A stretch of 64,000 bases of DNA, from the NCBI GenBank assembly GCA_030697795.1, contig JAUYOV010000001.1, positions 24,486 through 88,485 on the forward strand, written 5' to 3'. The stretch comes from a bacterium. Lineage in GTDB: Bacteria > Patescibacteriota > Minisyncoccia > JACQLN01. The translations under genes were made by a program, and so were the position numbers. Within the stretch, counting starts at the first letter, position 1. Each line of letters begins with the position of its first letter. Below the pieces are notes generated by a model. That model had not been told where the DNA came from and ran no database searches. It saw only the letters and a list, made by a program, of their open reading frames with translations. Positions 231-63,045 of this stretch are shown one piece after another.

Positions 231-812
231 TTAGAAAATATTCCCAACTCTTTCTTTTGCGTCTAATTCTTTAATCCTTTCGTTAAGATAATTATTATCT
301 ATTTGATAGATGTTTAAAAAGTTATGAATGTCCTCTATATCTTTTTTACCTTCTTCTGGCCCACGTTGCAATAAGGCTTTTATAAGCAAAACATCTTCTG
401 GAGGTAATAAATACAGATTAACCCCTTTATATTCAAACTGAATTCTTTTTTGCTTAATATTTTCAGTAATGCCAAATTTATAGTGCTTATCAAGATTAAA
501 TTCTAAATGGCTAGTAAATTGTATAGAATGATTTCCTTCGGGATTAGAGTTTCTAACCGGTCCAGCTTTCGATGTGTGTGTATACGATTCTATGTTAAAC
601 AACTGGTCAACAATGTCGTGTTCGCCGTTTGGTAAAAAAATATCTACATCATCCGGAATTCTTTTGTTACCCAGCAAGAAAAGGCAGCCACTACCGCCTA
701 TCATCCAATTTATAGAAGCCTTATTTAATTTTTCCGCAACAGAAACCAACATCGGAAACCTAAGCATAGATTCTTCTAGCTTTTTAATATCCATATTTAA
801 ATTATACAGCAC
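231..812 (-). CDS. Pol-beta-superfamily nucleotidyltransferase domain protein
   Basis: GGSGCLFLLG...DDVDIF matches the GS-x(9-13)-DxD nucleotidyltransferase signature; 193 aa; lies immediately upstream of the wHTH gene on the same strand. Confidence 0.5.
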   Translation of the reverse strand: MLYNLNMDIKKLEESMLRFPMLVSVAEKLNKASINWMIGGSGCLFLLGNKRIPDDVDIFLPNGEHDIVDQLFNIESYTHTSKAGPVRNSNPEGNHSIQFTSHLEFNLDKHYKFGITENIKQKRIQFEYKGVNLYLLPPEDVLLIKALLQRGPEEGKKDIEDIHNFLNIYQIDNNYLNERIKELDAKERVGNIF

Positions 813-870
813 ACCCTTATAATCTCAAGTTTGTCAGGGTATGTTTATTGTGTTGAAACGATAGCTTGGA

Positions 871-980
871 TTATATTAAACCATAGTCTCAAGTATGTTG
901 GGGTGTCATAAGTTAGCCTGCCCAGAATAAAAACTAAACTCCCTGCTTCTTTAAACGGACTGAATGGAAAATTAGACATG
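871..980. repeat. dispersed intergenic repeat, degenerate module A plus module B (copy 1)
   Basis: Module B (cccagaataaaaactaaactccctgcttctttaaacggactgaatggaaaattagacatg) is near-identical to 1665..1727; a degraded module A precedes it. Confidence 0.6.
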
Positions 981-1060
981 AATTTAATTCTCAGAAGGGC
1001 AACCCTTCGTTCTTTGTTTTTATATTGATATAATAAACCTATATTAAGCACCCGTCTATT

Positions 1061-1450
1061 ATGAATAAAAGATTTAACGAATGGATTAACTTAAAAGAAT
1101 CTTTAGACAAACAAAGTAACCGTCCGCCGCTTGTTTCAAAAGGAGATATTTGGTGGGTAAGTGTTGGAGAAAATGTTGGATCGGAAATCAGTGGTAAAGA
1201 TACTTTATTTTCACGTCCGGCAATTGTTCTTAAAAAACTTGCTCATGGTTTTTATTTTGTAATTCCAACAACAACTAGACCAAGAAAAGGAACTTGGTAT
1301 GTGGATTTTAAACATCAATCTATAGATATGGTCGCTTGTCTCCATCAAGCGCGTGCAATTGATTATCGCAGGTTATCTTCTAAGCTTGGAACGCTTGATG
1401 ACGAAGATTTCGCTAGAGTCAGAAAAGGATTCCAAGAACTCTATATATAA
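1061..1450 (+). CDS. mazF: MazF/PemK-family endoribonuclease toxin
   Basis: GDIWWVSVGENVGSEISGKDTLFSRPAIVL matches the PemK/MazF N-terminal signature; 129 aa; a hairpin terminator follows at 1455..1485; no adjacent antitoxin ORF. Confidence 0.7.
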   Translation: MNKRFNEWINLKESLDKQSNRPPLVSKGDIWWVSVGENVGSEISGKDTLFSRPAIVLKKLAHGFYFVIPTTTRPRKGTWYVDFKHQSIDMVACLHQARAIDYRRLSSKLGTLDDEDFARVRKGFQELYI

Positions 1451-1581
1451 ACGAATTCCCCGCCTTTTGAGGGGCGGGGCCGCGGGAAAATCCCGAATAT
1501 AATACGAGTATATTACCAATCACTCCTACTGTCAATTGTTCCCTTATTTTGCGATAGGGTCGGGCCGAAGCCATTGTTAAT

Positions 1582-1727
1582 ATATATTAAACCACAATAT
1601 TAACATACTGACATACTTGAGATTGTTGGTATGTTGTTAACCTAGGATCGAGCTGAGGTTAGTGCCCAGAAATAAAAATCAAATTCCCCCTGCTTCTTTA
1701 AACGGACTGAATGGGAAGTTAGACATG
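1582..1727. repeat. dispersed intergenic repeat, module A (hairpin, 13-bp stem) plus module B (copy 2)
   Basis: Module A aacatactgacatacttgagattgttggtatgtt recurs at 5783..5836 and in-frame at 19881..19917; module B recurs at 921..980. Confidence 0.65.
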
Positions 1728-2984: not shown

Positions 2985-3065
2985 ATTTTTTATTTAATTA
3001 AATCATCAACGCTAACTCCAAATATAAAACCAGCAAGGATTGTTCTTGGTAAAGATTTTTTACTT

Positions 3066-3887
3066 CTAGCGAGTAATAAGAACTATAATCTCCAGCTCTT
3101 TACCACCCATACTAATTTTACTCTCTATGCCTGACTTAAAAGCATATTCGTTATCTATTGCGTGGCTTGGATCAAAAATAACAAATATTATTCTATAGCA
3201 AGAACTCTGATTACCGTATGAAATAATATCCTCTTTGCATTGTTTTTGAATTTCTTTTTCCTTACCTTTATCTGAAATATATTTTGTCTCTATAAAAAGT
3301 CCAAGTTCTTCAATAGTAAAATCAATTGTGCTTGAAGCGGTACCAACTTTTTTATTTGGGTCTTCATATTGTAGAGTAGGAAATGGTCCTTTCAACATGA
3401 CATACAATATATCTTGAATATCATACTCGTCTCTGACTTCTAAGGAATTCTTTCCTTTCCTACGATGCTTAAGACGACTAATCACATCTGACAATCTATT
3501 CAAGATATTTATCACTTGATGGACCGAAGGGAGGGTATTTCCAACTAAAGGGATCCCTGTTTTTATTTTTGTTCTTGCACTCATCGCAAGACCTCGGAGT
3601 TTCAAAATACTTTTTGTTTTTATAGTATTTTGGAAAGACCCAATAAATCCATCAATAAATAAATCCCCATCATGCAGTTTACTTTTTGGATCAAATTCAT
3701 CACTTAAATCTCCAGTAGTGGAAATTCCAAGTTGTTTAAATATTTCTTCTATAATCCCCCAAATATTCTGTATATTACCTAGGTGTTCCTCTATTTCTTC
3801 TATATTTCCTTCGCTCCTTTTTTTCAACCAGTTTGAGATGTTATTGATGAAACTATCAAGGTATTTAATTTGGGATCGTTTATCCAT
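3066..3887 (-). CDS. hypothetical protein, C-terminal half with a possible PD-(D/E)xK-like motif
   Basis: 273 aa; IDFTIEELGLFIETK resembles a D..E.K nuclease core; overlaps the upstream Bro-N gene by 8 nt, implying an operon. Confidence 0.35.
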   Translation of the reverse strand: MDKRSQIKYLDSFINNISNWLKKRSEGNIEEIEEHLGNIQNIWGIIEEIFKQLGISTTGDLSDEFDPKSKLHDGDLFIDGFIGSFQNTIKTKSILKLRGLAMSARTKIKTGIPLVGNTLPSVHQVINILNRLSDVISRLKHRRKGKNSLEVRDEYDIQDILYVMLKGPFPTLQYEDPNKKVGTASSTIDFTIEELGLFIETKYISDKGKEKEIQKQCKEDIISYGNQSSCYRIIFVIFDPSHAIDNEYAFKSGIESKISMGGKELEIIVLITR

Positions 3888-4464
3888 ATATTATTTTATA
3901 ATCTTTTACGCTTCTATCTGCCCAGGCTTTTGTAATCTCGTCGGTTAGTATCGCATATTCTAATCCTTCTTTCATTTCCCGTTCTTGCCATTCATCGGTT
4001 AATTCTTTGCGTACTTCAATACTTTTTAAGCGTTGATTTATCCATTCTTTGCTGTATCCTTTTTGCAAATATGTTTTCATCGCCCTATTAAAAGCTAGTT
4101 CTGGATCTGCTGTTTCTTCTATCCGTTCATAGCCAACCTTAGCCAGCCATAATTTAAAAGGTTCTGCTTTTGGGGAAGGGATTGATTGGACTACACGGAG
4201 CAAATCTTCTGTGGAAAAACAGTCTGTTGCATATTTCTTTCCATCAGAAGCTACAAATTTCAGTTGTACGATTTTCTCGTACACCTCACCGCCTTCATCT
4301 TTCAACTTATTCTTTAAATCACTCCAATATCGTTTCGGAATAGTAGAATCAACTAAGACTCCTATTACATCAATAACAGAGAAATACCAAGTTTCTTTTT
4401 TTTCATTATAAAAACGGCGTACTTGCTTTTGGTTAAATAAGACTATTGAATTTGATTTTTTCAT
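3880..4464 (-). CDS. Bro-N (KilA-N/DinD-like) domain protein
   Basis: WYFSVIDVIGVLVDS...KRYWSDLKNKL...KLWLAKVGYERIEE resembles Bro-N/DinD family proteins common on phages and MGEs; 194 aa. Confidence 0.5.
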   Translation of the reverse strand: MKKSNSIVLFNQKQVRRFYNEKKETWYFSVIDVIGVLVDSTIPKRYWSDLKNKLKDEGGEVYEKIVQLKFVASDGKKYATDCFSTEDLLRVVQSIPSPKAEPFKLWLAKVGYERIEETADPELAFNRAMKTYLQKGYSKEWINQRLKSIEVRKELTDEWQEREMKEGLEYAILTDEITKAWADRSVKDYKIIYG

Positions 4465-40894: not shown

Positions 40895-41563
40895 TTATTT
40901 ATCATTCAATAAAAAATCCTTTCCTTCTTTTATAACTTCATCTATACTCCCCCATTGTTTTGAGGCATATAAATTTCTTAATCCTTTCTCGTTTGGCTTG
41001 CCTTTTTGTTCGGGATTAGAAAAATAAGATAAGGACTCTTTAAGTAATTCATATTTTTCATACCCGAGTTTATCTTTAAGATTCAAATAATAAAAATAAA
41101 ACATAAAATGGTTTAATTCATGCAAAAGAACTTTTATTTGTTTTTCTGGGGTATCGTTTAAATAAATATAAATAAACTTATCTTTGTAGCTATAAGGACA
41201 TAAAGATAAAGATGTTAAATAAATTGTAATATTATCAAAAGGAAATTCTTTTTTATATAAATTCTCTAATTTTTGTAAAACTAATCCACCTTTTTCTTCC
41301 CATTTATTTTCTAAATTTTTAATAACATTTTCTATTTTTTGATGATTTTTTATTTCCCATTCATTTAAAAAAGTTTTTATTCGCACACCTGCGTCTTCTT
41401 TGTTTTTAGAATTTTCTATCTCTTTTCTTAATTTTGAATCCAATTGGCTAAGAAGTTTCTCACGAATATTTTCTCTACCATGCTTTAAATGCTTAAACTC
41501 AAAAACACCATCTAGGTGGTTTTTGGTGTCTTTCTCTATTGAATATGTTATTTTTAAATTCAT
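40895..41563 (-). CDS. HExxH-motif protein, putative zinc metallopeptidase
   Basis: 222 aa with LLHELNHF (HExxH); directly downstream of the Cys/Asp precursor peptide. Confidence 0.35.
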   Translation of the reverse strand: MNLKITYSIEKDTKNHLDGVFEFKHLKHGRENIREKLLSQLDSKLRKEIENSKNKEDAGVRIKTFLNEWEIKNHQKIENVIKNLENKWEEKGGLVLQKLENLYKKEFPFDNITIYLTSLSLCPYSYKDKFIYIYLNDTPEKQIKVLLHELNHFMFYFYYLNLKDKLGYEKYELLKESLSYFSNPEQKGKPNEKGLRNLYASKQWGSIDEVIKEGKDFLLNDK

Positions 41564-41623
41564 TTTTTAAAAAACCCTCAATTCTGTGTATTTTACAGAA
41601 CTGAGGGTGAACTTCAATCATGA

Positions 41624-41767
41624 TCAATCTCCGTCAATGCAATCGCAATCGCAACTGTCACATTCCACACAATCGTCGCAGTCGTGACAATCGCAATCGC
41701 AAGAGCTATCGGGCATGACCGCACTAGCATCATGTCCATGCTTTAGCTGGACAATACCTGCTGGCAT
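41624..41767 (-). CDS. Cys/Asp-rich 47-aa precursor peptide (candidate ranthipeptide/SCIFF-like RiPP precursor)
   Basis: MPAGIVQLKHGHDASAVMPDSSCDCDCHDCDDCVECDSCDCDCIDGD: 9 Cys alternating with Asp/Glu in the C-terminal 25 aa; starts 16 nt after the rSAM/SPASM stop; below the ORF-track cutoff. Confidence 0.55.
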   Translation of the reverse strand: MPAGIVQLKHGHDASAVMPDSSCDCDCHDCDDCVECDSCDCDCIDGD

Positions 41768-41782
41768 TATTCTCACCCCCTT

Positions 41783-43096
41783 TCATGGTTGAAGTGGAAC
41801 TAGGATTTTACTACTTACAAGCCTAGAAATCGTTTCCTCTGCTTCTTTTATAATAACACCATATTCCTTAGAAATAACACTAGGGTCAATATTAGATCCA
41901 ACATTCCTCGATTCCATAAGAATTTTATACATTCTATGATCTATGGATAACCAATTTCTTTGGTTAAAAAATGCTATTGCACCAAAACTTTCTGGCCTAA
42001 AACGCACCTCATCAGAAACTCTATATAAAGTATTTCCTTTATTTTTAGTCTTATTTTTTATCACATGGAAATTGCGATTAATACAGCCCAAACAACTAGG
42101 GTCCTTACCCCCTAAACCTCTATTATGAGTATAAGCTTCTATTCTACAACCACCTCCACAAAAAAATGGGAAGGCAGAACATTTATCTTTACATAATATG
42201 GGTATAAGAGAATCATCCCTCCATGCATGCATATTATTCCAAGCATTTTTTAATCCATCTGCAATATTTCCATACTCCATAGAAGCATGAGAACAAGGAC
42301 GAATTTCGCCATTAAAACCAATTGAACAAGAAGTTTTAGCAGCCGTACAACTTCTAAAACCAAACGTGGCGCGGGCATCATTGTTTGGAAACACACAAGT
42401 TGGATAATGTTCTAAAGAATCAACATTAATATCGTACTTATCTCTAATACGTAAAAGCACTCCAAACATTTCCGTTAACTGGGCTTGATCTATAGAAAAC
42501 TCACTAAAATCAAGACAATTACTAGGAGCAGAAGCTTTTGTAGCACAAAAAGTTTTAGCTCCTAGTTCTTTAGCTAATTTTCCTGTCTCTTCAATAGTGT
42601 GAAAATTATCTTTTGTAACTACCATGTTAACAGAAACACCCAACCCGTTTTGTACAGCAAATCTAATCTTTTTAACAATTATTTTATAAGAACCTTTCCT
42701 TTGGGAGATTTTATCATTTATTTGAGGATCAGCCGACATAAGAGATGTTAAAACTGATTTAATACCCAGCTCTCCTAACAAATAAATCATTTTTGGCGTT
42801 AATAAAGTTATATTACTATTTAAATTGAAGGTTATTCCTCTTGATCTCATCCTTTTTAATATATTACTGATCCTAGGAATAACAAGCAGGGGTTCCCCAC
42901 CGGTTAAGGTAATACTAAAAACATTATTTTCAACCACCTCTTTTTCAACAAGACAAAAAATACTATCATTAACCTCAAAAACAGGACTGCCTATCTCTTC
43001 CGATCGCCAATAGTTATAACAATGAATACAGTTATGATTACACCAAGATGTAAGCTCCCACTGTACATTTATAGGTCCAGAAAGCCTAGTAAACAT
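41783..43096 (-). CDS. radical SAM enzyme with C-terminal SPASM domain (peptide-modifying maturase)
   Basis: CNHNCIHC (Cx3Cx2C) at residues 19-26; C-terminal Cys cluster CTAAKTSC...RPCSHAS...CKDKCSAFPFFCGGGC typical of SPASM auxiliary Fe-S domains. Confidence 0.8.
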   Translation of the reverse strand: MFTRLSGPINVQWELTSWCNHNCIHCYNYWRSEEIGSPVFEVNDSIFCLVEKEVVENNVFSITLTGGEPLLVIPRISNILKRMRSRGITFNLNSNITLLTPKMIYLLGELGIKSVLTSLMSADPQINDKISQRKGSYKIIVKKIRFAVQNGLGVSVNMVVTKDNFHTIEETGKLAKELGAKTFCATKASAPSNCLDFSEFSIDQAQLTEMFGVLLRIRDKYDINVDSLEHYPTCVFPNNDARATFGFRSCTAAKTSCSIGFNGEIRPCSHASMEYGNIADGLKNAWNNMHAWRDDSLIPILCKDKCSAFPFFCGGGCRIEAYTHNRGLGGKDPSCLGCINRNFHVIKNKTKNKGNTLYRVSDEVRFRPESFGAIAFFNQRNWLSIDHRMYKILMESRNVGSNIDPSVISKEYGVIIKEAEETISRLVSSKILVPLQP

Positions 43097-43192
43097 GATA
43101 CTTTCTCCTTGTGATTTGTTTAGTATAAAAAGTACTGTTTAAAGTGTATTACTACATATAACTATTGTCAATTAGTTATATTTTAGGTATAG

Positions 43193-43762
43193 TTGATTAG
43201 AAAAATTATAAAAGTTATGAAAGAAATAGAAGTTAAAATTGAATTAACATCAAAAGAATTTAAAAACCTTACTCCTGTTTCTAGTGGTTTCCACTTGGAA
43301 AGAACTTTTGGTTATTTTAAAAAAGATTTTTCAAATATAAAAGAAGGCATATTTCCAAGAATAAAATATATAGATGGAAAGAAAAAAGAAGTTATTTTAA
43401 CTGTAAAAAGAAAAATAAAAAAGAACGTTAAATTTTTTGAGCGAGAAGAAATGGAAGTTAAAATGACTGGAGGGGAAAAAATAGAAATATTAAGAGAGAT
43501 GATAAAATCTTTAGGATTTAGTAAAGAAATAATTTTTGAAAAGAAAAGAAAAAATATTTTTAAAAAAGATATAGTGATTTCTTTCGATAAACTCCCTTTT
43601 GGTTTTTTTGTTGAGTTTGAAGGTGAACCAGAAAAGATAAACAAGTATCTTGGTAAATTTAATCTTTTAAACCGTCCTAGAATTACTAGAGCATACCTTG
43701 GAGTGTGGGAAGATTATAAAAACAAAAATAATATTAAAGAGGAGGATTGTCTTTTTAAATAA
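43193..43762 (+). CDS. CYTH-domain (triphosphate tunnel metalloenzyme/CyaB-like) protein
   Basis: MKEIEVKIEL (ExExK signature) near the N-terminus; true start probably 43217. Confidence 0.6.
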   Translation: MIRKIIKVMKEIEVKIELTSKEFKNLTPVSSGFHLERTFGYFKKDFSNIKEGIFPRIKYIDGKKKEVILTVKRKIKKNVKFFEREEMEVKMTGGEKIEILREMIKSLGFSKEIIFEKKRKNIFKKDIVISFDKLPFGFFVEFEGEPEKINKYLGKFNLLNRPRITRAYLGVWEDYKNKNNIKEEDCLFK

Positions 43763-43854: not shown

Positions 43855-45234
43855 CTATAGAGATTTGCCGAAGCTGTCGGCGAAGAGGAAGAAATCGCCG
43901 AAGCCGATTTCTCCATTCCAATCGAGGTCATATTGCTGAACCTCTTGGGTAAGAGCTTTTCGGCCAAAGTAATCGGCAAAGAGGAAAAAATCTTCGAAAT
44001 CTACCATGTCGTCGCCAGTAAAATCTGGAATGGGTAAAGAAACAACTTCCCACTCCTTAGAATTTACCAGCAACTTATCGGGATCGTACCGAACGAATTC
44101 GGTTGTATCTGTCACTTCCACTTTTACAGTATGCTGACCATAGCCAATACTCGTGTCTGTAACCTGGAAAGTTGTGGCATCATCGGCTATGGGCATAACT
44201 ACCCCATCCACAAACCATTGGATTCTTAAATTATGATCCGTCGGCTGAGGCATATTCCTTATTGTGAAAGTGGTGGTATGCTCGCCAACATCTACCGCCA
44301 AATCCGCCAACGGATTGACGTATTTGTAGATGGCTTTGACGATGGCTTCACGGCAGACCTTGCAGAACTGGGGCCTAGGTTCAACATCTGGATCGTAAGC
44401 ACCCATAGTGCATTTAAGCTCTGGATGATACCATCCAGATGCAAATCCTCCACCACCTTCAAACAAACCAACCCTACCAGCAAATTCATCTACAGATGGA
44501 GTTGGAATAGGAACTGTTGGATCAATCCAATGTTTCCACCTTATGAGATTGAATTTTGTTTCGGTGGTTACATTGATCAAACCAACAGTACTTCCAAAAC
44601 TTCTTTCGGTTTGACCAGGCTTCATAGCAAGAAGACCTGTGTATTCATCTTGAACACCTGCTAGAGCGTGCGCTAATTCGTGCGCACATGTACTCGCATA
44701 TAGCTCGGGAACAAAAGGTTTCGGATCACCACGTAACATTCCTGCACCTAAAGTAGCTATACCTATTAAAGATAGGCCAGGAGGCTGCGCAGCCTCAGCA
44801 CCAGCAAAATCGTTTACAATTAAAACTGAAACAATTGGATCCTCTTTGCCAAAAAAACTTCTGGAAATAGATTCTATTATTTCAAGATTCGGGTTATAAC
44901 CGCCAAACTGCCCAAAATAAGTTTTGGGTGTCTGGCCGTATTCTACAGCAGAAAGAAGTGAATCTTGAGAAGCTGCCCATATCAGATGCACATTGAAAAA
45001 CTTCTTGTACTCCTTGTAAGGTGTACGTTCAAACATATTATCAATCGCCAACCTAGCATCGCTGTAGAATCTTTCTCTCATAGAAGCCGTGTAAGCCTCT
45101 GAAAGAAAGACTATGTTTACTCTGTTACTGCTGTGGCCGTTTTCCATTATTGCGGTTATGGTTGGTACTTCTTCAGAAAATACAGAAGTTACCCAAGCCA
45201 TAACAATGGCTAAAGTGAAAATATATTTTTTCAA
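43855..45234 (-). CDS. secreted M64-like zinc metallopeptidase with C-terminal dockerin-type repeats
   Basis: Signal peptide; HELAHAL HExxH; tandem Ca-binding-like repeats DFTGDDMVDFEDFFLFADYFG and DLDWNGEIGFGDFFLFADSFG. Confidence 0.6.
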   Translation of the reverse strand: MKKYIFTLAIVMAWVTSVFSEEVPTITAIMENGHSSNRVNIVFLSEAYTASMRERFYSDARLAIDNMFERTPYKEYKKFFNVHLIWAASQDSLLSAVEYGQTPKTYFGQFGGYNPNLEIIESISRSFFGKEDPIVSVLIVNDFAGAEAAQPPGLSLIGIATLGAGMLRGDPKPFVPELYASTCAHELAHALAGVQDEYTGLLAMKPGQTERSFGSTVGLINVTTETKFNLIRWKHWIDPTVPIPTPSVDEFAGRVGLFEGGGGFASGWYHPELKCTMGAYDPDVEPRPQFCKVCREAIVKAIYKYVNPLADLAVDVGEHTTTFTIRNMPQPTDHNLRIQWFVDGVVMPIADDATTFQVTDTSIGYGQHTVKVEVTDTTEFVRYDPDKLLVNSKEWEVVSLPIPDFTGDDMVDFEDFFLFADYFGRKALTQEVQQYDLDWNGEIGFGDFFLFADSFGKSL

Positions 45235-45257
45235 CTTTTTTCCTCCTCTTAAGATTT

Positions 45258-45296
45258 AAGGTCAGACCTTGTCTTAGGGATTAAGGTCTGACCTTT
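45258..45296. terminator. hairpin element aaggtcagacc...ggtctgacctt plus T-run (member of a 2-copy family)
   Basis: 11-bp stem then ttttt; related copy at 47629..47668. Confidence 0.6.
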
Positions 45297-45463
45297 TTAG
45301 GAATTTTTTAAAGGACTAGCCGTGGTTTTGAATGTTTTTATGATACCATAAAAGATAAGCAAAAGCAAGTTAGCAATTATCCACAATAGGAAAAAGAAAA
45401 AGGTATACTCGTTAGAGCATACCTTTAAGGAAGGAACACGGAGTTACTGGTCGGCCGACAGAA

Positions 45464-45583
45464 TCAGCTATTGCTGGTATCGGCATCGTCATCGCCGTCA
45501 TTTCCTTGCTCTTCGGCGGGACCGTCATCCCAGTCTTGGTAATCGGAATCCCCGTCTCCGCCGCCCAAGCGTAGTTGGCTCAT
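45464..45583 (-). CDS. acidic 39-aa small peptide with strong RBS
   Basis: AAGGAGGTGATATAA-ATG; MSQLRLGGGDGDSDYQDWDDGPAEEQGNDGDDDADTSNS; ~55% GC; downstream of the GNAT and M16 genes on the same strand. Confidence 0.3.
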   Translation of the reverse strand: MSQLRLGGGDGDSDYQDWDDGPAEEQGNDGDDDADTSNS

Positions 45584-45665
45584 TTATATCACCTCCTTTC
45601 GCCAGTTTGATATTGAAAGAACTTACTAGTTAGCTTACAACTTTTAAATATATACCTTAAAATAT

Positions 45666-46265
45666 CTACGTCAATGGTTGCCCCCTACTTTTAAACTTTT
45701 GGAGTAAAGATTCTATTTTATCTAACGAATCTCTAAGTATCGCGAAACGGAAAACATCATAGTACTTACCATCAAAAAACCTATGTTCCTTAAAACAGCC
45801 TTCCTCGCAAAAACCATAGGATGAAACTGCGTTTCTCATTGTTGAAAGGGAAAGGCAGTTATACTCAAAAACTTCAAAACAAATCTTATGGATTGGTAGA
45901 AATTTAAATAAATAACGCACTATCACAACGATAGCTTCGGCCCCATAGCCCCTATTCTCATAATTCTCATCAATATAGACATTTACAAATATATATCCAT
46001 CAATATGGTTGAAATTGAAAGAGAATATTGTTCCTAGAGCCACAACGTCTTTTTTACGCAATACTATGAACTGTAGATGACGATTTCGTTCAAATTCCCT
46101 AGCTAGTTCTTTGGTAAAATTCTCCGGACTCACAACTTCTCGTTTCGCTGAAAACAAAGCCAGAAACCGTGATTCATTACGCCATCTGTGTAAAGTGGGA
46201 TAATCAGAATCCTCAATCGGTTTAAGGGTTATTCTGCTGGTTTCTAGATCTTCGGTGGCCACCAC
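45666..46265 (-). CDS. GNAT-family N-acetyltransferase
   Basis: 199 aa; acetyl-CoA-binding-like core ...NRGYGAEAIVVIVRYLF... Confidence 0.7.
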   Translation of the reverse strand: MVATEDLETSRITLKPIEDSDYPTLHRWRNESRFLALFSAKREVVSPENFTKELAREFERNRHLQFIVLRKKDVVALGTIFSFNFNHIDGYIFVNVYIDENYENRGYGAEAIVVIVRYLFKFLPIHKICFEVFEYNCLSLSTMRNAVSSYGFCEEGCFKEHRFFDGKYYDVFRFAILRDSLDKIESLLQKFKSRGQPLT

Positions 46266-46333
46266 GTTCTCCTTTCTCGTTTATCAAGGTACATTGTTTG
46301 ATAACCTATATAACCACACTTAACACTATGTAA

Positions 46334-47572
46334 TCAAATCCTATTTTTTATATCTTCTGGACCTAAAATTGTCAATAAACTGTTATCTTTTTTTAAGTAT
46401 TTTTTACCTGTCTTTACCACTTCTTCAAAAGTGGTTTCTCTAATTATTTTTTTATAGTTCTCCGGTTCAAATAATTTATTGAACAAGCTGAGTCCTTCCC
46501 CTAAAAAATTAAGTTCATTTTTTGAGCTTGAATAAAAACGATCAAAAACATTGTATATTTTTTCTTTAGTCTCTTCGATTTCTTGCGGGGATATATTTTG
46601 TAAGAAATTATAAATTGAATCAAATATTATTTTTACCGTTTTTGATGGATTAGAAGAAGCTGTTTGGATTTGGAAAATTCCTGCATCTGTATATCTGGTG
46701 TTGAAGGTATTTACAGTATAAACTAAGCCTGTTTCGTGTCTCAATTTTTCAGATAAAAAGCTTTTAGTTCCAAAACCTAGGTAGTTACTTATTATTGCCA
46801 GCGCGGCTTCTTCTTTTAGGTTCAGTCCTCCTGGGGTATGAAAATTTAATAATATTCTTGTTTGTTCTGTTTGGTTAGATACATATAAATAGTTTTCGTG
46901 ATTATTTAAAACCAACACAGGTTTTTCTGTTTCTGATTTTGAATTACTACTCCACGATCCAAAATATTGTTCTGTTTCTGCCAGAATTTGTTTATGAGGT
47001 AAGTTACTTATTACTATGATAGCGCTCCTTTCCGGTGTGAAATAACTGCGCTGGTATTCTCTTAGTTGTCCTATTGTTGAACCCTTTATTACATCCATAG
47101 AGCCGATTGGTTCTTGAGAAAGCGGGTGTGCGCTAAAAAAGTTTTTTAATACTAAAAAATTAAACTTTCTAATTGGTTTGTTTTCGTCTATCAATGCTTC
47201 TTCTATAATAATTTTTTTGTTTATTTCAAAATCTTCAGTACTTATTTCAAAATCATTTATTAGCGCGCTTAAAACTTTTATAGAATCATCCATATATTTT
47301 ATTGGTAACTCTATAATAAAATGAGTATTTTCACGGCTGGTAAAAGCATTGGTGTAAGCGCCTACTTGTTTCCTGCCAGTTTCGTTGTAGAGATTATTTA
47401 TTTTTTTACAAAGCAAATGTTCTAGAAAATGAGTATAACCCAGCTGATCTTTTTTTTCGTGTCGCGCGCCGGCTTTTACCCACAACGAAACTATAGCAAC
47501 AGAGGCGCTTTCATTGGTTGAAGTGATTAGTCTTAATCCATTTTTTAGTACGCTTTCTCGGTATTTAGGCAT
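46334..47572 (-). CDS. M16-family (pitrilysin/insulinase-like) zinc peptidase
   Basis: HFLEHL inverted zinc motif (HxxEH) at residues ~48-53; 412 aa. Confidence 0.75.
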   Translation of the reverse strand: MPKYRESVLKNGLRLITSTNESASVAIVSLWVKAGARHEKKDQLGYTHFLEHLLCKKINNLYNETGRKQVGAYTNAFTSRENTHFIIELPIKYMDDSIKVLSALINDFEISTEDFEINKKIIIEEALIDENKPIRKFNFLVLKNFFSAHPLSQEPIGSMDVIKGSTIGQLREYQRSYFTPERSAIIVISNLPHKQILAETEQYFGSWSSNSKSETEKPVLVLNNHENYLYVSNQTEQTRILLNFHTPGGLNLKEEAALAIISNYLGFGTKSFLSEKLRHETGLVYTVNTFNTRYTDAGIFQIQTASSNPSKTVKIIFDSIYNFLQNISPQEIEETKEKIYNVFDRFYSSSKNELNFLGEGLSLFNKLFEPENYKKIIRETTFEEVVKTGKKYLKKDNSLLTILGPEDIKNRI

Positions 47573-62637: not shown

Positions 62638-63045
62638 TTACCAGCCATAGTTCGGCAAAAACTTTTGCAGAATGCTGGAACTGAATGGTGCTGGAGCTAC
62701 CGATCCGCCAGTTGGAGCCGGAGCAAATCCTCCCGAAGATCCTGCTTGCCCGCCAGAGCCTTGCGGCGGCTGGGAGCTTGGCGAGGGGCTACCGCCACCT
62801 TGTTGGAGCACCCCCTCTATGTTCTGTCTGATATTTTCACGGATATTCTGCCTGACATTCTGCTGAACGCCCTGCTGTATATTCTGCTTGATACCCTGCT
62901 GAATTTGCCTCTGCTGTTGGATATTTTGTTTAACATTCTGTTTTGTGTTTTGCCTCGCCGTTTGCACTGCCTTTCTAGCCGCATTTATTTTAATTTGATA
63001 TTCCGAACGAATAGCTCGAATTTTTTCTTCCATTTCCCTTTGCAA
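62638..63045 (-). CDS. Gln/Asn-rich low-complexity protein
   Basis: 135 aa; QNIQQ/QNVRQNIRENIRQNIE repeats, Gly/Ser-rich tail. Confidence 0.35.
   Translation of the reverse strand: MQREMEEKIRAIRSEYQIKINAARKAVQTARQNTKQNVKQNIQQQRQIQQGIKQNIQQGVQQNVRQNIRENIRQNIEGVLQQGGGSPSPSSQPPQGSGGQAGSSGGFAPAPTGGSVAPAPFSSSILQKFLPNYGW

Follow-up and report, generated by a model that had tools for sequence, protein, structure and literature searches.

In the ranthipeptide systems, among them PapB/freyrasin, QhpD/QhpC and NxxcB, a radical S-adenosylmethionine (rSAM) enzyme with a SPASM domain acts on a leader-bearing peptide in which Cys repeats lie near Asp or Glu residues. PapB links the sulfur of Cys to the C-beta of Asp or the C-gamma of Glu and accepts spacings from CX0D to CX6D (PMC9413430). 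Loci of the candidate phyla radiation (CPR) where an rSAM maturase with a SPASM domain and two peptidases of the zincin superfamily stand beside a system for peptides synthesized by the ribosome and modified after translation (RiPPs) have been recorded in a survey of graspetides (Makarova et al. 2022; PMC8939145). Here we describe a locus in a 64,000-nt stretch of contig JAUYOV010000001.1 from a Patescibacteriota genome, hereafter the window, in which an rSAM/SPASM gene, a gene for a 47-aa Cys-rich peptide and a gene for a zincin-like HExxH protein follow one another on the reverse strand. The locus is probably a RiPP cassette of a large uncharacterised family, combining a leader-guided rSAM maturase with a zincin leader peptidase, and its first two genes very probably form a maturase-precursor pair. 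To our knowledge, every characterised SPASM enzyme acting on Cys-rich RiPP precursors forms thioethers (see also PMC9413430 and PMC8939145), and the RiPP precursor recognition element (RRE) is N-terminal in the characterised thioether maturases.

The peptide is encoded by an open reading frame (ORF) of 47 aa (41624..41767, minus strand), reading MPAGIVQLKHGHDASAVMPDSSCDCDCHDCDDCVECDSCDCDCIDGD, which starts 15 nt after the stop codon of the rSAM gene on the same strand and is preceded by a Shine-Dalgarno-like site (aaaggggg). An earlier note on this DNA had counted 16 nt for the spacer, a figure corrected here; its description of the ORF, with 9 Cys and 11 Asp/Glu among the last 25 residues, agrees with the sequence. 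Residues 1-22 form the leader part (41702..41767, minus strand), with the family motif PAGIVQLK at residues 2-9. Residues 23-47, CDCDCHDCDDCVECDSCDCDCIDGD, form the core (41624..41701, minus strand, including the stop codon). These 25 C-terminal residues comprise 9 Cys, 10 Asp and 1 Glu, and each of the nine Cys is followed by an acidic residue at most two positions later. The Cys density of the core cannot be put down to chance: in the long ORFs of the window 0.84% of the residues are Cys, the probability of finding at least 9 Cys in a given 25-residue stretch is about 4e-13, and the peptide segment has the highest Cys density among the 951 stop-free segments of the window. An artefact of a long microsatellite was considered and rejected, since the hexamer copies number only 3.5 and 2.5 and relatives use different codons for the same residues. 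The antisense ORFs over the core (41586..41687 and 41620..41718, plus strand) and an ORF in another frame (41614..41739, minus strand) were rejected as by-products of the repeat. No second copy of the cassette was found within the 64-kb window.

The association between the peptide and the enzyme recurs widely. Among 80 loci with a homologous rSAM gene, taken from species-representative genomes, 62 carry, immediately downstream of the rSAM gene and on the same strand, a small ORF that encodes 38-84 aa, 4-10 of them Cys. A wider look found a Cys-rich small ORF nearby in about 10 more, in some of them upstream of the rSAM gene, which brings the loci with an adjacent Cys-rich small ORF to about 72 of the 80; further examples of the cassette occur on metagenome contigs. 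The leader motif x-[LP]-G-[FIY]-[VEL]-[ST]-[LIM]-[LIFV] is present in most of 73 peptides and scores 1012.6, against 621.9 +/- 13.1 for shuffled leaders (about 30 standard deviations above). In the closest relatives, L082 (rSAM 58% identical) and L083, the cores read CDCHDCV[SD]DCVECDSCDCDCI[DE] and are nearly invariant; the core codon differences within this group are synonymous rather than non-synonymous by 6/1, 6/1 and 7/2, and GGAGG-type ribosome-binding sites precede the small ORF in both relatives. Synteny, the shared leader motif, the bias towards synonymous codon changes and the ribosome-binding sites together indicate that the 47-aa ORF is a real gene, apparently translated and with a core under purifying selection, and they bear out the expectation of the earlier note that the small ORF would recur beside rSAM homologues. 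A word-indexed peptide-against-protein search with the 47-aa query returned one candidate and none that scored, a result that is uninformative for a query of such low complexity.

Directly after the peptide stop codon, between the peptide and HExxH genes, lies an intrinsic-terminator-like hairpin with a 14-bp stem and a U-tract (41566..41608, minus strand), for which the RNA fold was calculated at -22.7 kcal/mol, an energy that none of 200 shuffles reaches (z = -4.9). Hairpins of differing, unrelated sequence occupy the same position in L082, L083, L086 and L007. The terminator behind the precursor gene is thus conserved in structure and not in sequence.

Outside the leader, the family peptides are hypervariable except for the spacing of their Cys residues, with 135 CxC and 102 CxxC among 376 gaps. 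The residue that follows Cys is Asp in 42% and Glu in 10% of cases across the family (together 52%). It is usual for RiPPs that the leader is conserved while the core varies. The rSAM tree tracks both the class of the core and the type of the zincin: the CD-repeat cores of the window's clade go with HELNH, CYDCDYNCEEC cores with HEISH, and CYCNCGCACxVTG cores, which contain no Asp or Glu, with HELLH, while WWE3-type CEDNCDGED cores and Pro-rich CxPPPPC cores both go with Peptidase_MA_2. There are genomes that have two cassettes whose cores differ, and several loci hold two or three HExxH paralogues; the loci concerned are L036 and L046, both of which belong to JAKAHO01, a metagenome-assembled genome (MAG), and L028, L045, L029 and L074. 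The record titles of the 80 loci name CPR lineages including WWE3, Uhrbacteria, Paceibacterota, Microgenomates, Saccharibacteria and many others. The set also contains two archaeal MAGs, L040 ('archaeon') and L057 (Nanoarchaeota), and non-CPR bacterial MAGs of Clostridia (L067, L070), Caldisericia (L010), Bacteroidota (L014) and Omnitrophica (L044). The archaeal (DPANN-type) cores are CD repeats much like those of the window. Occurrence outside the CPR suggests horizontal transfer among small-celled symbionts, in records that are MAG-based and may contain binning errors.

The rSAM gene (41783..43096, minus strand) encodes a protein of 437 aa that matches PF04055 at 1.8e-20 and has the CX3CX2C motif and TIM-barrel core of the Radical SAM / SPASM superfamily. 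The motif, CNHNCIHC, occupies residues 19-26 (43019..43042, minus strand), and Cys19, Cys23 and Cys26 are kept in 28 of 29 homologues, the remaining one being N-terminally truncated. The SPASM auxiliary Fe-S domain covers residues ~234-338 (42083..42397, minus strand) and scores 35.2 bits with TIGR04085 (cut-off 27) and 21.6 with Pfam PF13186 (cut-off 21.5), so that both elements named in the earlier note, the motif and the SPASM Cys cluster, are present. Cys 234, 250, 268, 302, 306, 313 and 317 are invariant in the 29 homologues; Cys257 is found in 26 of them and Cys335 in 21. A clustered protein database yielded 627 homologues at E<=1e-10, mostly from Patescibacteria/CPR MAGs, and a profile search yielded 1497 clusters at 50% identity at E<=1e-30. 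In L085, two genes of 392 aa (440..1618 and 3001..4179), one of which is the rSAM homologue, stand on either side of transposase fragments; this pair of equal length may represent a duplication of the maturase.

The enzyme reaches none of the NCBIfam equivalog cut-offs. Its best match is MftC (TIGR03962; 89.7 bits, cut-off 265), and the other scores are AhbD 88.5 (cut-off 500), NirJ2 86 (500), GeoRSP 85.3 (400), PapB 75.7 (NF047865; 340), AlbA 66.8 (NF012164; 850) and SkfB 52.3 (TIGR04403; 300). The models of the SCIFF maturase and of anaerobic sulfatase-maturating enzymes (anSMEs) are not among its 25 best NCBIfam matches, and the SCIFF maturase model TIGR03974 gives a marginal match when the C-terminal fragment of residues 190-437 is searched (E 0.12, 11.2 bits, cut-off 425). 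By sequence, the closest relatives of solved structure are the peptide maturases SkfB (1e-20), PqqE (7e-20) and SuiB (2e-14), with MoaA, TigE, anSME (2e-11) and CteB also found. The AlphaFold2 model has a confidence (pLDDT) of 90, and the solved structures nearest to the enzyme are the peptide maturases SkfB, PqqE, SuiB, CteB and ChlB. The anSME fold is as similar to it as those of the other relatives, and the sequence match to anSME is weaker than those to SkfB and PqqE; the fold alone does not reveal the chemistry of the enzyme. The affiliation with anaerobic sulfatase maturases that the earlier note had considered is not borne out, SkfB, PqqE and SuiB being closer than anSME. Judged by sequence, the enzyme belongs to a separate clade of the SPASM group.

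Residues ~355-437 (41786..42034, minus strand) form a C-terminal domain that is modelled as a beta-sheet (strands at 358-385) followed by a three-helix winged helix (helices at 387-428). An Arg, a Glu, a Gly and a Trp are invariant in its strand region. Its sequence matches are to the winged-helix proteins eS25, Z-alpha, MarR and TrmB, and it also matches weakly the RRE protein of mycofactocin synthesis, MftB (E 0.0017, 18.7 bits, cut-off 33). From the model and these matches, we read it as an RRE-like domain that may recognise the leader.

Compared with the described systems, the locus shares a logic and differs in the parts. Like the ranthipeptide precursors, its core has Cys residues with Asp or Glu as possible acceptors close by, yet the maturase falls short of the PapB cut-off. 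The window motif is C-X0-1-D/E set in a CxC/CxxC lattice and not CX3D, the RRE-like domain is C-terminal, a dedicated zincin accompanies the system, and some clades of the family lack acidic residues altogether. The SCIFF systems (CteB/Tte1186) and the sactipeptide synthases (AlbA, SkfB, ThnB) differ from it in leader motif and domain order; the SCIFF peptide model TIGR03973 does not match the window peptide, and the maturase lies below the family cut-offs of both AlbA and SkfB. It is set apart from the anSMEs by the weaker sequence match and by a peptide with no CxPxR/SxPxR motif. FibroRumin (TIGR04135) likewise has a short precursor with a Cys-rich C-terminus and an adjacent rSAM gene. This family is computational, and we know of no experimental data on it. 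The L029 peptide (CYCHCACAC type) gives a weak full-length match to its model (E 0.012, 15.6 bits, cut-off 45), whereas the window peptide does not match it, and the 25 best matches of the rSAM do not include the maturase model of FibroRumin. When 8-10 peptides of the family were scanned with Pfam and NCBIfam at E<=10, nothing but that weak FibroRumin match came up. What defines the graspetide loci mentioned above is an ATP-grasp ligase together with graspetide precursors, whereas no ATP-grasp gene is conserved here, and the Cys-rich peptide family is not described in that survey (PMC8939145). Nor did a search of the literature on CPR/Patescibacteria rSAM RiPPs outside subscription journals turn up a description of it. 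The view of the earlier note that the peptide represents an undescribed precursor class is consistent with that outcome and with the lack of any Pfam or NCBIfam match to the window peptide. The system would work like a ranthipeptide or sactipeptide system and yet, by sequence, falls outside PapB, SCIFF, AlbA, SkfB, MftC and anSME. What we rate as new is the rSAM RiPP family, which is large and uncurated, has a maturase clade of its own and CxC-lattice cores, and combines a C-terminal RRE-like domain with a dedicated zincin; the general logic is familiar.

Altogether, these observations suggest a model in which the leader, through its PAGIVQLK motif, would dock as a strand on the C-terminal winged-helix RRE-like domain, and the enzyme would modify the Cys-rich core by means of a 5'-deoxyadenosyl radical and its two auxiliary Fe-S clusters. 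The likeliest modification would be the formation of several intramolecular thioether (S-C) cross-links, a chemistry to which, by analogy, we give about an even chance. In the window member, the nine C-X0-1-[D/E] units could plausibly link Cys to the C-beta of Asp or the C-gamma of Glu in the ranthionine manner, with a loss of 2 Da per link; that the Asp/Glu side chains are the acceptors is a tentative proposal, again by analogy, and one that we hold to be less likely than not. Several points weigh against the RiPP cassette as a whole. The rSAM scores far below every curated maturase cut-off, and the non-peptide SPASM enzymes AhbD and NirJ2 score as well as MftC and PapB. A Pfam scan of the C-terminal domain found generic winged-helix families and no PqqD match, so the RRE assignment draws on topology and one sub-threshold match. 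The chemistry is proposed from family resemblance only, and one sub-group (CYCNCGCACxVTG) has no Asp/Glu while another is Pro-rich. All-against-all clustering of the neighbouring ORFs revealed no tailoring gene, ATP-grasp or other, and no transporter or immunity gene that is conserved, no signal peptide was found to be conserved with the cassette, and export is not evident.

The rSAM might modify the peptide by a route other than Cys-to-Asp thioethers, such as sactionine formation (Cys S to C-alpha), oxidation of the Cys C-beta as in anSMEs, epimerisation, C-C cross-links or another Cys-centred reaction, with the CxC/CxxC scaffold as its family-wide target and Asp as a local decoration. We consider this unlikely, though it has points in its favour. 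Cys spacing is the sole feature of the core that holds family-wide, whole clades such as that of CYCNCGCAC are acid-free, the best solved relative by sequence, SkfB, forms C-alpha thioethers, and the scores with the PapB and SCIFF models lie far under their cut-offs. The acid-free clades imply that a Cys-to-Asp linkage is not the family-wide reaction. Set against this, each Cys of the window core has its Asp or Glu within two residues, and the frequency of acidic residues after Cys across the family would be hard to explain if the acids were idle. As to an anSME-like oxidation, the recognition motif of these enzymes, CxPxR, is absent from the peptide. Spacings as short as those of the window core are moreover cross-linked by PapB (PMC9413430).

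Downstream of the hairpin, the third gene (40895..41563, minus strand) encodes the 222-aa HExxH protein, with HELNH at residues 148-152 and Glu172 located 20 residues past the second His (H152). The third ligand of thermolysin likewise lies 20 residues after the second His. The HExxH helix and the downstream Glu are those of gluzincin-like zincins, and the protein has the fold of a zincin catalytic domain. The protein has 34 close homologues, all of them unnamed, and HELNHFMF, E172, K175, E176, R30 and R196 are invariant. No Pfam or NCBIfam family scores above its cut-off for this protein, and the only matches are faint ones to M78, SprT and DUF3920. An iterated hidden Markov model placed its family next to the cassette, in one orientation or the other, at 47 of 84 loci; a further 24 loci have a different zincin, whose match to Pfam Peptidase_MA_2 exceeds the cut-off in some of them. 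A zincin of one or other of these two unrelated types stands beside 67 of the 84 loci, and several of the remainder are truncated contigs. Assignment of the window family to the Peptidase_MA_2 type was rejected, as a comparison of its profile with one Peptidase_MA_2-type partner sequence aligns the HExxH helix only (probability 27.6%), and the two were kept separate. Because the window HExxH type also accompanies cores without any acidic residue, its conserved target is more likely the leader than Asp. This independence from core composition, together with the replacement by a peptidase-clan family, favours a leader peptidase, which by analogy is the most likely function of the 222-aa protein. 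The same role had been put forward in the earlier note and gains from the conserved partnership and the zincin fold. The zincin, encoded after what would be an attenuating terminator, would remove the leader, and the peptide so released would be small, strongly anionic and stapled at several points. The closest homologue of the window protein (83% identical), in L081 (45..2492), directly follows an HExxH paralogue (244 aa, HEMLH). This pair comes after a different SPASM-type rSAM, which the end of the contig truncates and of which more than 330 aa are present, and no small Cys-rich ORF was found between the genes. The HExxH zincin family may thus serve more than one rSAM system.

Alternatively, the HExxH protein might act as a HExxH oxygenase dependent on alpha-ketoglutarate (alpha-KG) and Fe(II), hydroxylating residues of the core, for instance at the C-beta of Asp, or cleaving the backbone by oxidation, as do ChlH, BpmH and PflC. 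Enzymes of this kind, which annotations for a long time took for peptidases, are found in rSAM RiPP clusters and hydroxylate Asp and His (PMC12636437), and the window core is rich in Asp. We regard this function as quite unlikely, however: none of 27 members of the HExxH family convincingly matches the alpha-KG-HExxH model or any other NCBIfam model, even at E<=10. The model concerned is TIGR04267, which we take to be IPR026337, the alpha-KG HExxH family as cited in PMC12636437; it is not listed for any of the 27 in NCBIfam at E<=10. The same HExxH family goes with acid-free cores, in 24 loci a peptidase-clan family stands in its place, and the spacing to Glu172 equals that of thermolysin. Most CPR bacteria are presumed to be anaerobic fermenters, to which an enzyme dependent on O2 and alpha-KG would be ill-suited. 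The two roles are in any case not exclusive, since PflC is also hydrolytic (PMC12636437).

Another account would make the peptide mainly a metal binder, either metallothionein-like or a thiolate/carboxylate metallochaperone or metallophore, with the rSAM and the zincin processing it lightly or being mere neighbours. Dense CxC/CxxC motifs flanked by carboxylates are classic soft and hard metal ligands, the lack of a conserved exporter or immunity gene suits an intracellular role, and the cassette is kept in very small genomes. A simple metal binder, however, would need neither a conserved leader motif apart from the Cys-rich part, nor an RRE-like domain on the adjacent enzyme, nor a dedicated zincin in so many loci. 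Ten of the peptides gave no metallothionein or other Pfam match at E<=10, and the rSAM tree co-varies with the class of the core. We therefore judge this account very improbable and side with the earlier note, which had preferred a RiPP to a metal-binding peptide; metal binding by the mature, modified product would be compatible with the RiPP cassette and is no rival to it.

It is extremely improbable that the cassette serves to make a small-molecule cofactor out of a peptide, in the manner of the mycofactocin (MftA/B/C) and pyrroloquinoline quinone (PqqA/D/E) pathways, with the rSAM/SPASM enzyme and RRE cross-linking the peptide and the peptidase excising it: the rank of MftC as best NCBIfam match and of PqqE as second-best solved relative, the weak match of the RRE-like domain to MftB in view of the need of both pathways for an RRE-type domain to bind the peptide, the layout of enzyme, peptide and peptidase without a transporter and the retention in reduced genomes all recall these pathways, but cofactor precursors keep their reacting residues strictly, whereas the cores here are Cys-rich and differ wholly by clade (CD repeats, CYCNCGCAC, PPPPC, CEDNCDGED), the RRE-like domain is fused and not separate, the scores lie far under the MftC and PqqE cut-offs, neither an MftA-like nor a PqqA-like family matches the peptides, and MftD/E/F and PqqB/C are not among the conserved neighbours.

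Upstream of the rSAM gene, a consensus scan gave the promoter-like site TTGACA-17-TACACT (43143..43171, minus strand; 10 of 12 matches), which is a pattern match only, such sites being no more numerous in the region than in shuffles. The two small proteins that the earlier note had placed after the HExxH gene exist (197 aa and 86 aa) but are not conserved with the cassette; these two ORFs were rejected as members of it, as were the methyltransferase, CYTH and M64 genes, each being absent from the related loci or present in one at most. The divergent ORF at 43193..43762 (plus strand; 189 aa) matches CYTH with 22.4 against a Pfam cut-off of 23.2 and has a homologue near the cassette in L069 only. 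At 43855..45234 (minus strand), a 459-aa protein has a signal-peptide-like N-terminus, an IgA-peptidase M64 domain (5.9e-27) and two dockerin-like DFFLFAD repeats at its C-terminus; the GC content of its gene is 0.42-0.44, against 0.24-0.35 for its neighbours, and it may have been acquired horizontally. The ~430 nt between this M64-like gene and the next (45235..45665) contain no ORF of more than 40 aa and no Rfam family at gathering score. The region 45666..47572 (minus strand) encodes a 199-aa GNAT-like protein and an M16-like peptidase, which have counterparts near the cassette in L039 (6790..8898; 42% and 22% identical, respectively). M16 peptidases process other RiPP and cofactor precursors. 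The pairing occurs in 1 of the 80 loci (L039), where the rSAM is 33% identical to that of the window, and a functional link is unproven. Farther away, a 135-aa low-complexity ORF (62638..63045, minus strand) has QQN[IV]RQNI-type repeats and a Gly/Ser/Pro-rich tail, and its antisense frame contains a spurious Cys-rich ORF.

CPR bacteria and DPANN archaea have tiny genomes and very few recognised specialised-metabolite pathways. A three-gene cassette found in about 1,500 sequence clusters, with hypervariable cores and no curated model, therefore points to a wide gap in what annotation and genome mining can see. At about 2.2 kb, the cassette is small enough for direct co-expression. Its maturase could extend the set of rSAM tools for stapling peptides by a cross-link topology or a leader-recognition layout that is new. 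We regard the product as a candidate for a molecule through which ultra-small symbionts interact with their hosts, and we infer that its role may lie in signalling, antagonism or metal binding at that interface. As a speculation, and one more doubtful than the Asp/Glu acceptors proposed above, the cassette may be the founding example of a distinct RiPP class common in CPR bacteria and DPANN archaea, in which a separate SPASM clade with a C-terminal RRE turns CxC/CxxC lattices into very small contiguous thioether rings, and the polyanionic stapled product signals, antagonises or captures metal in the relationship between episymbiont and host. If this were true, the nine C-X0-1-D/E rings of the window peptide would constitute a topology not described for natural sactipeptides or ranthipeptides.

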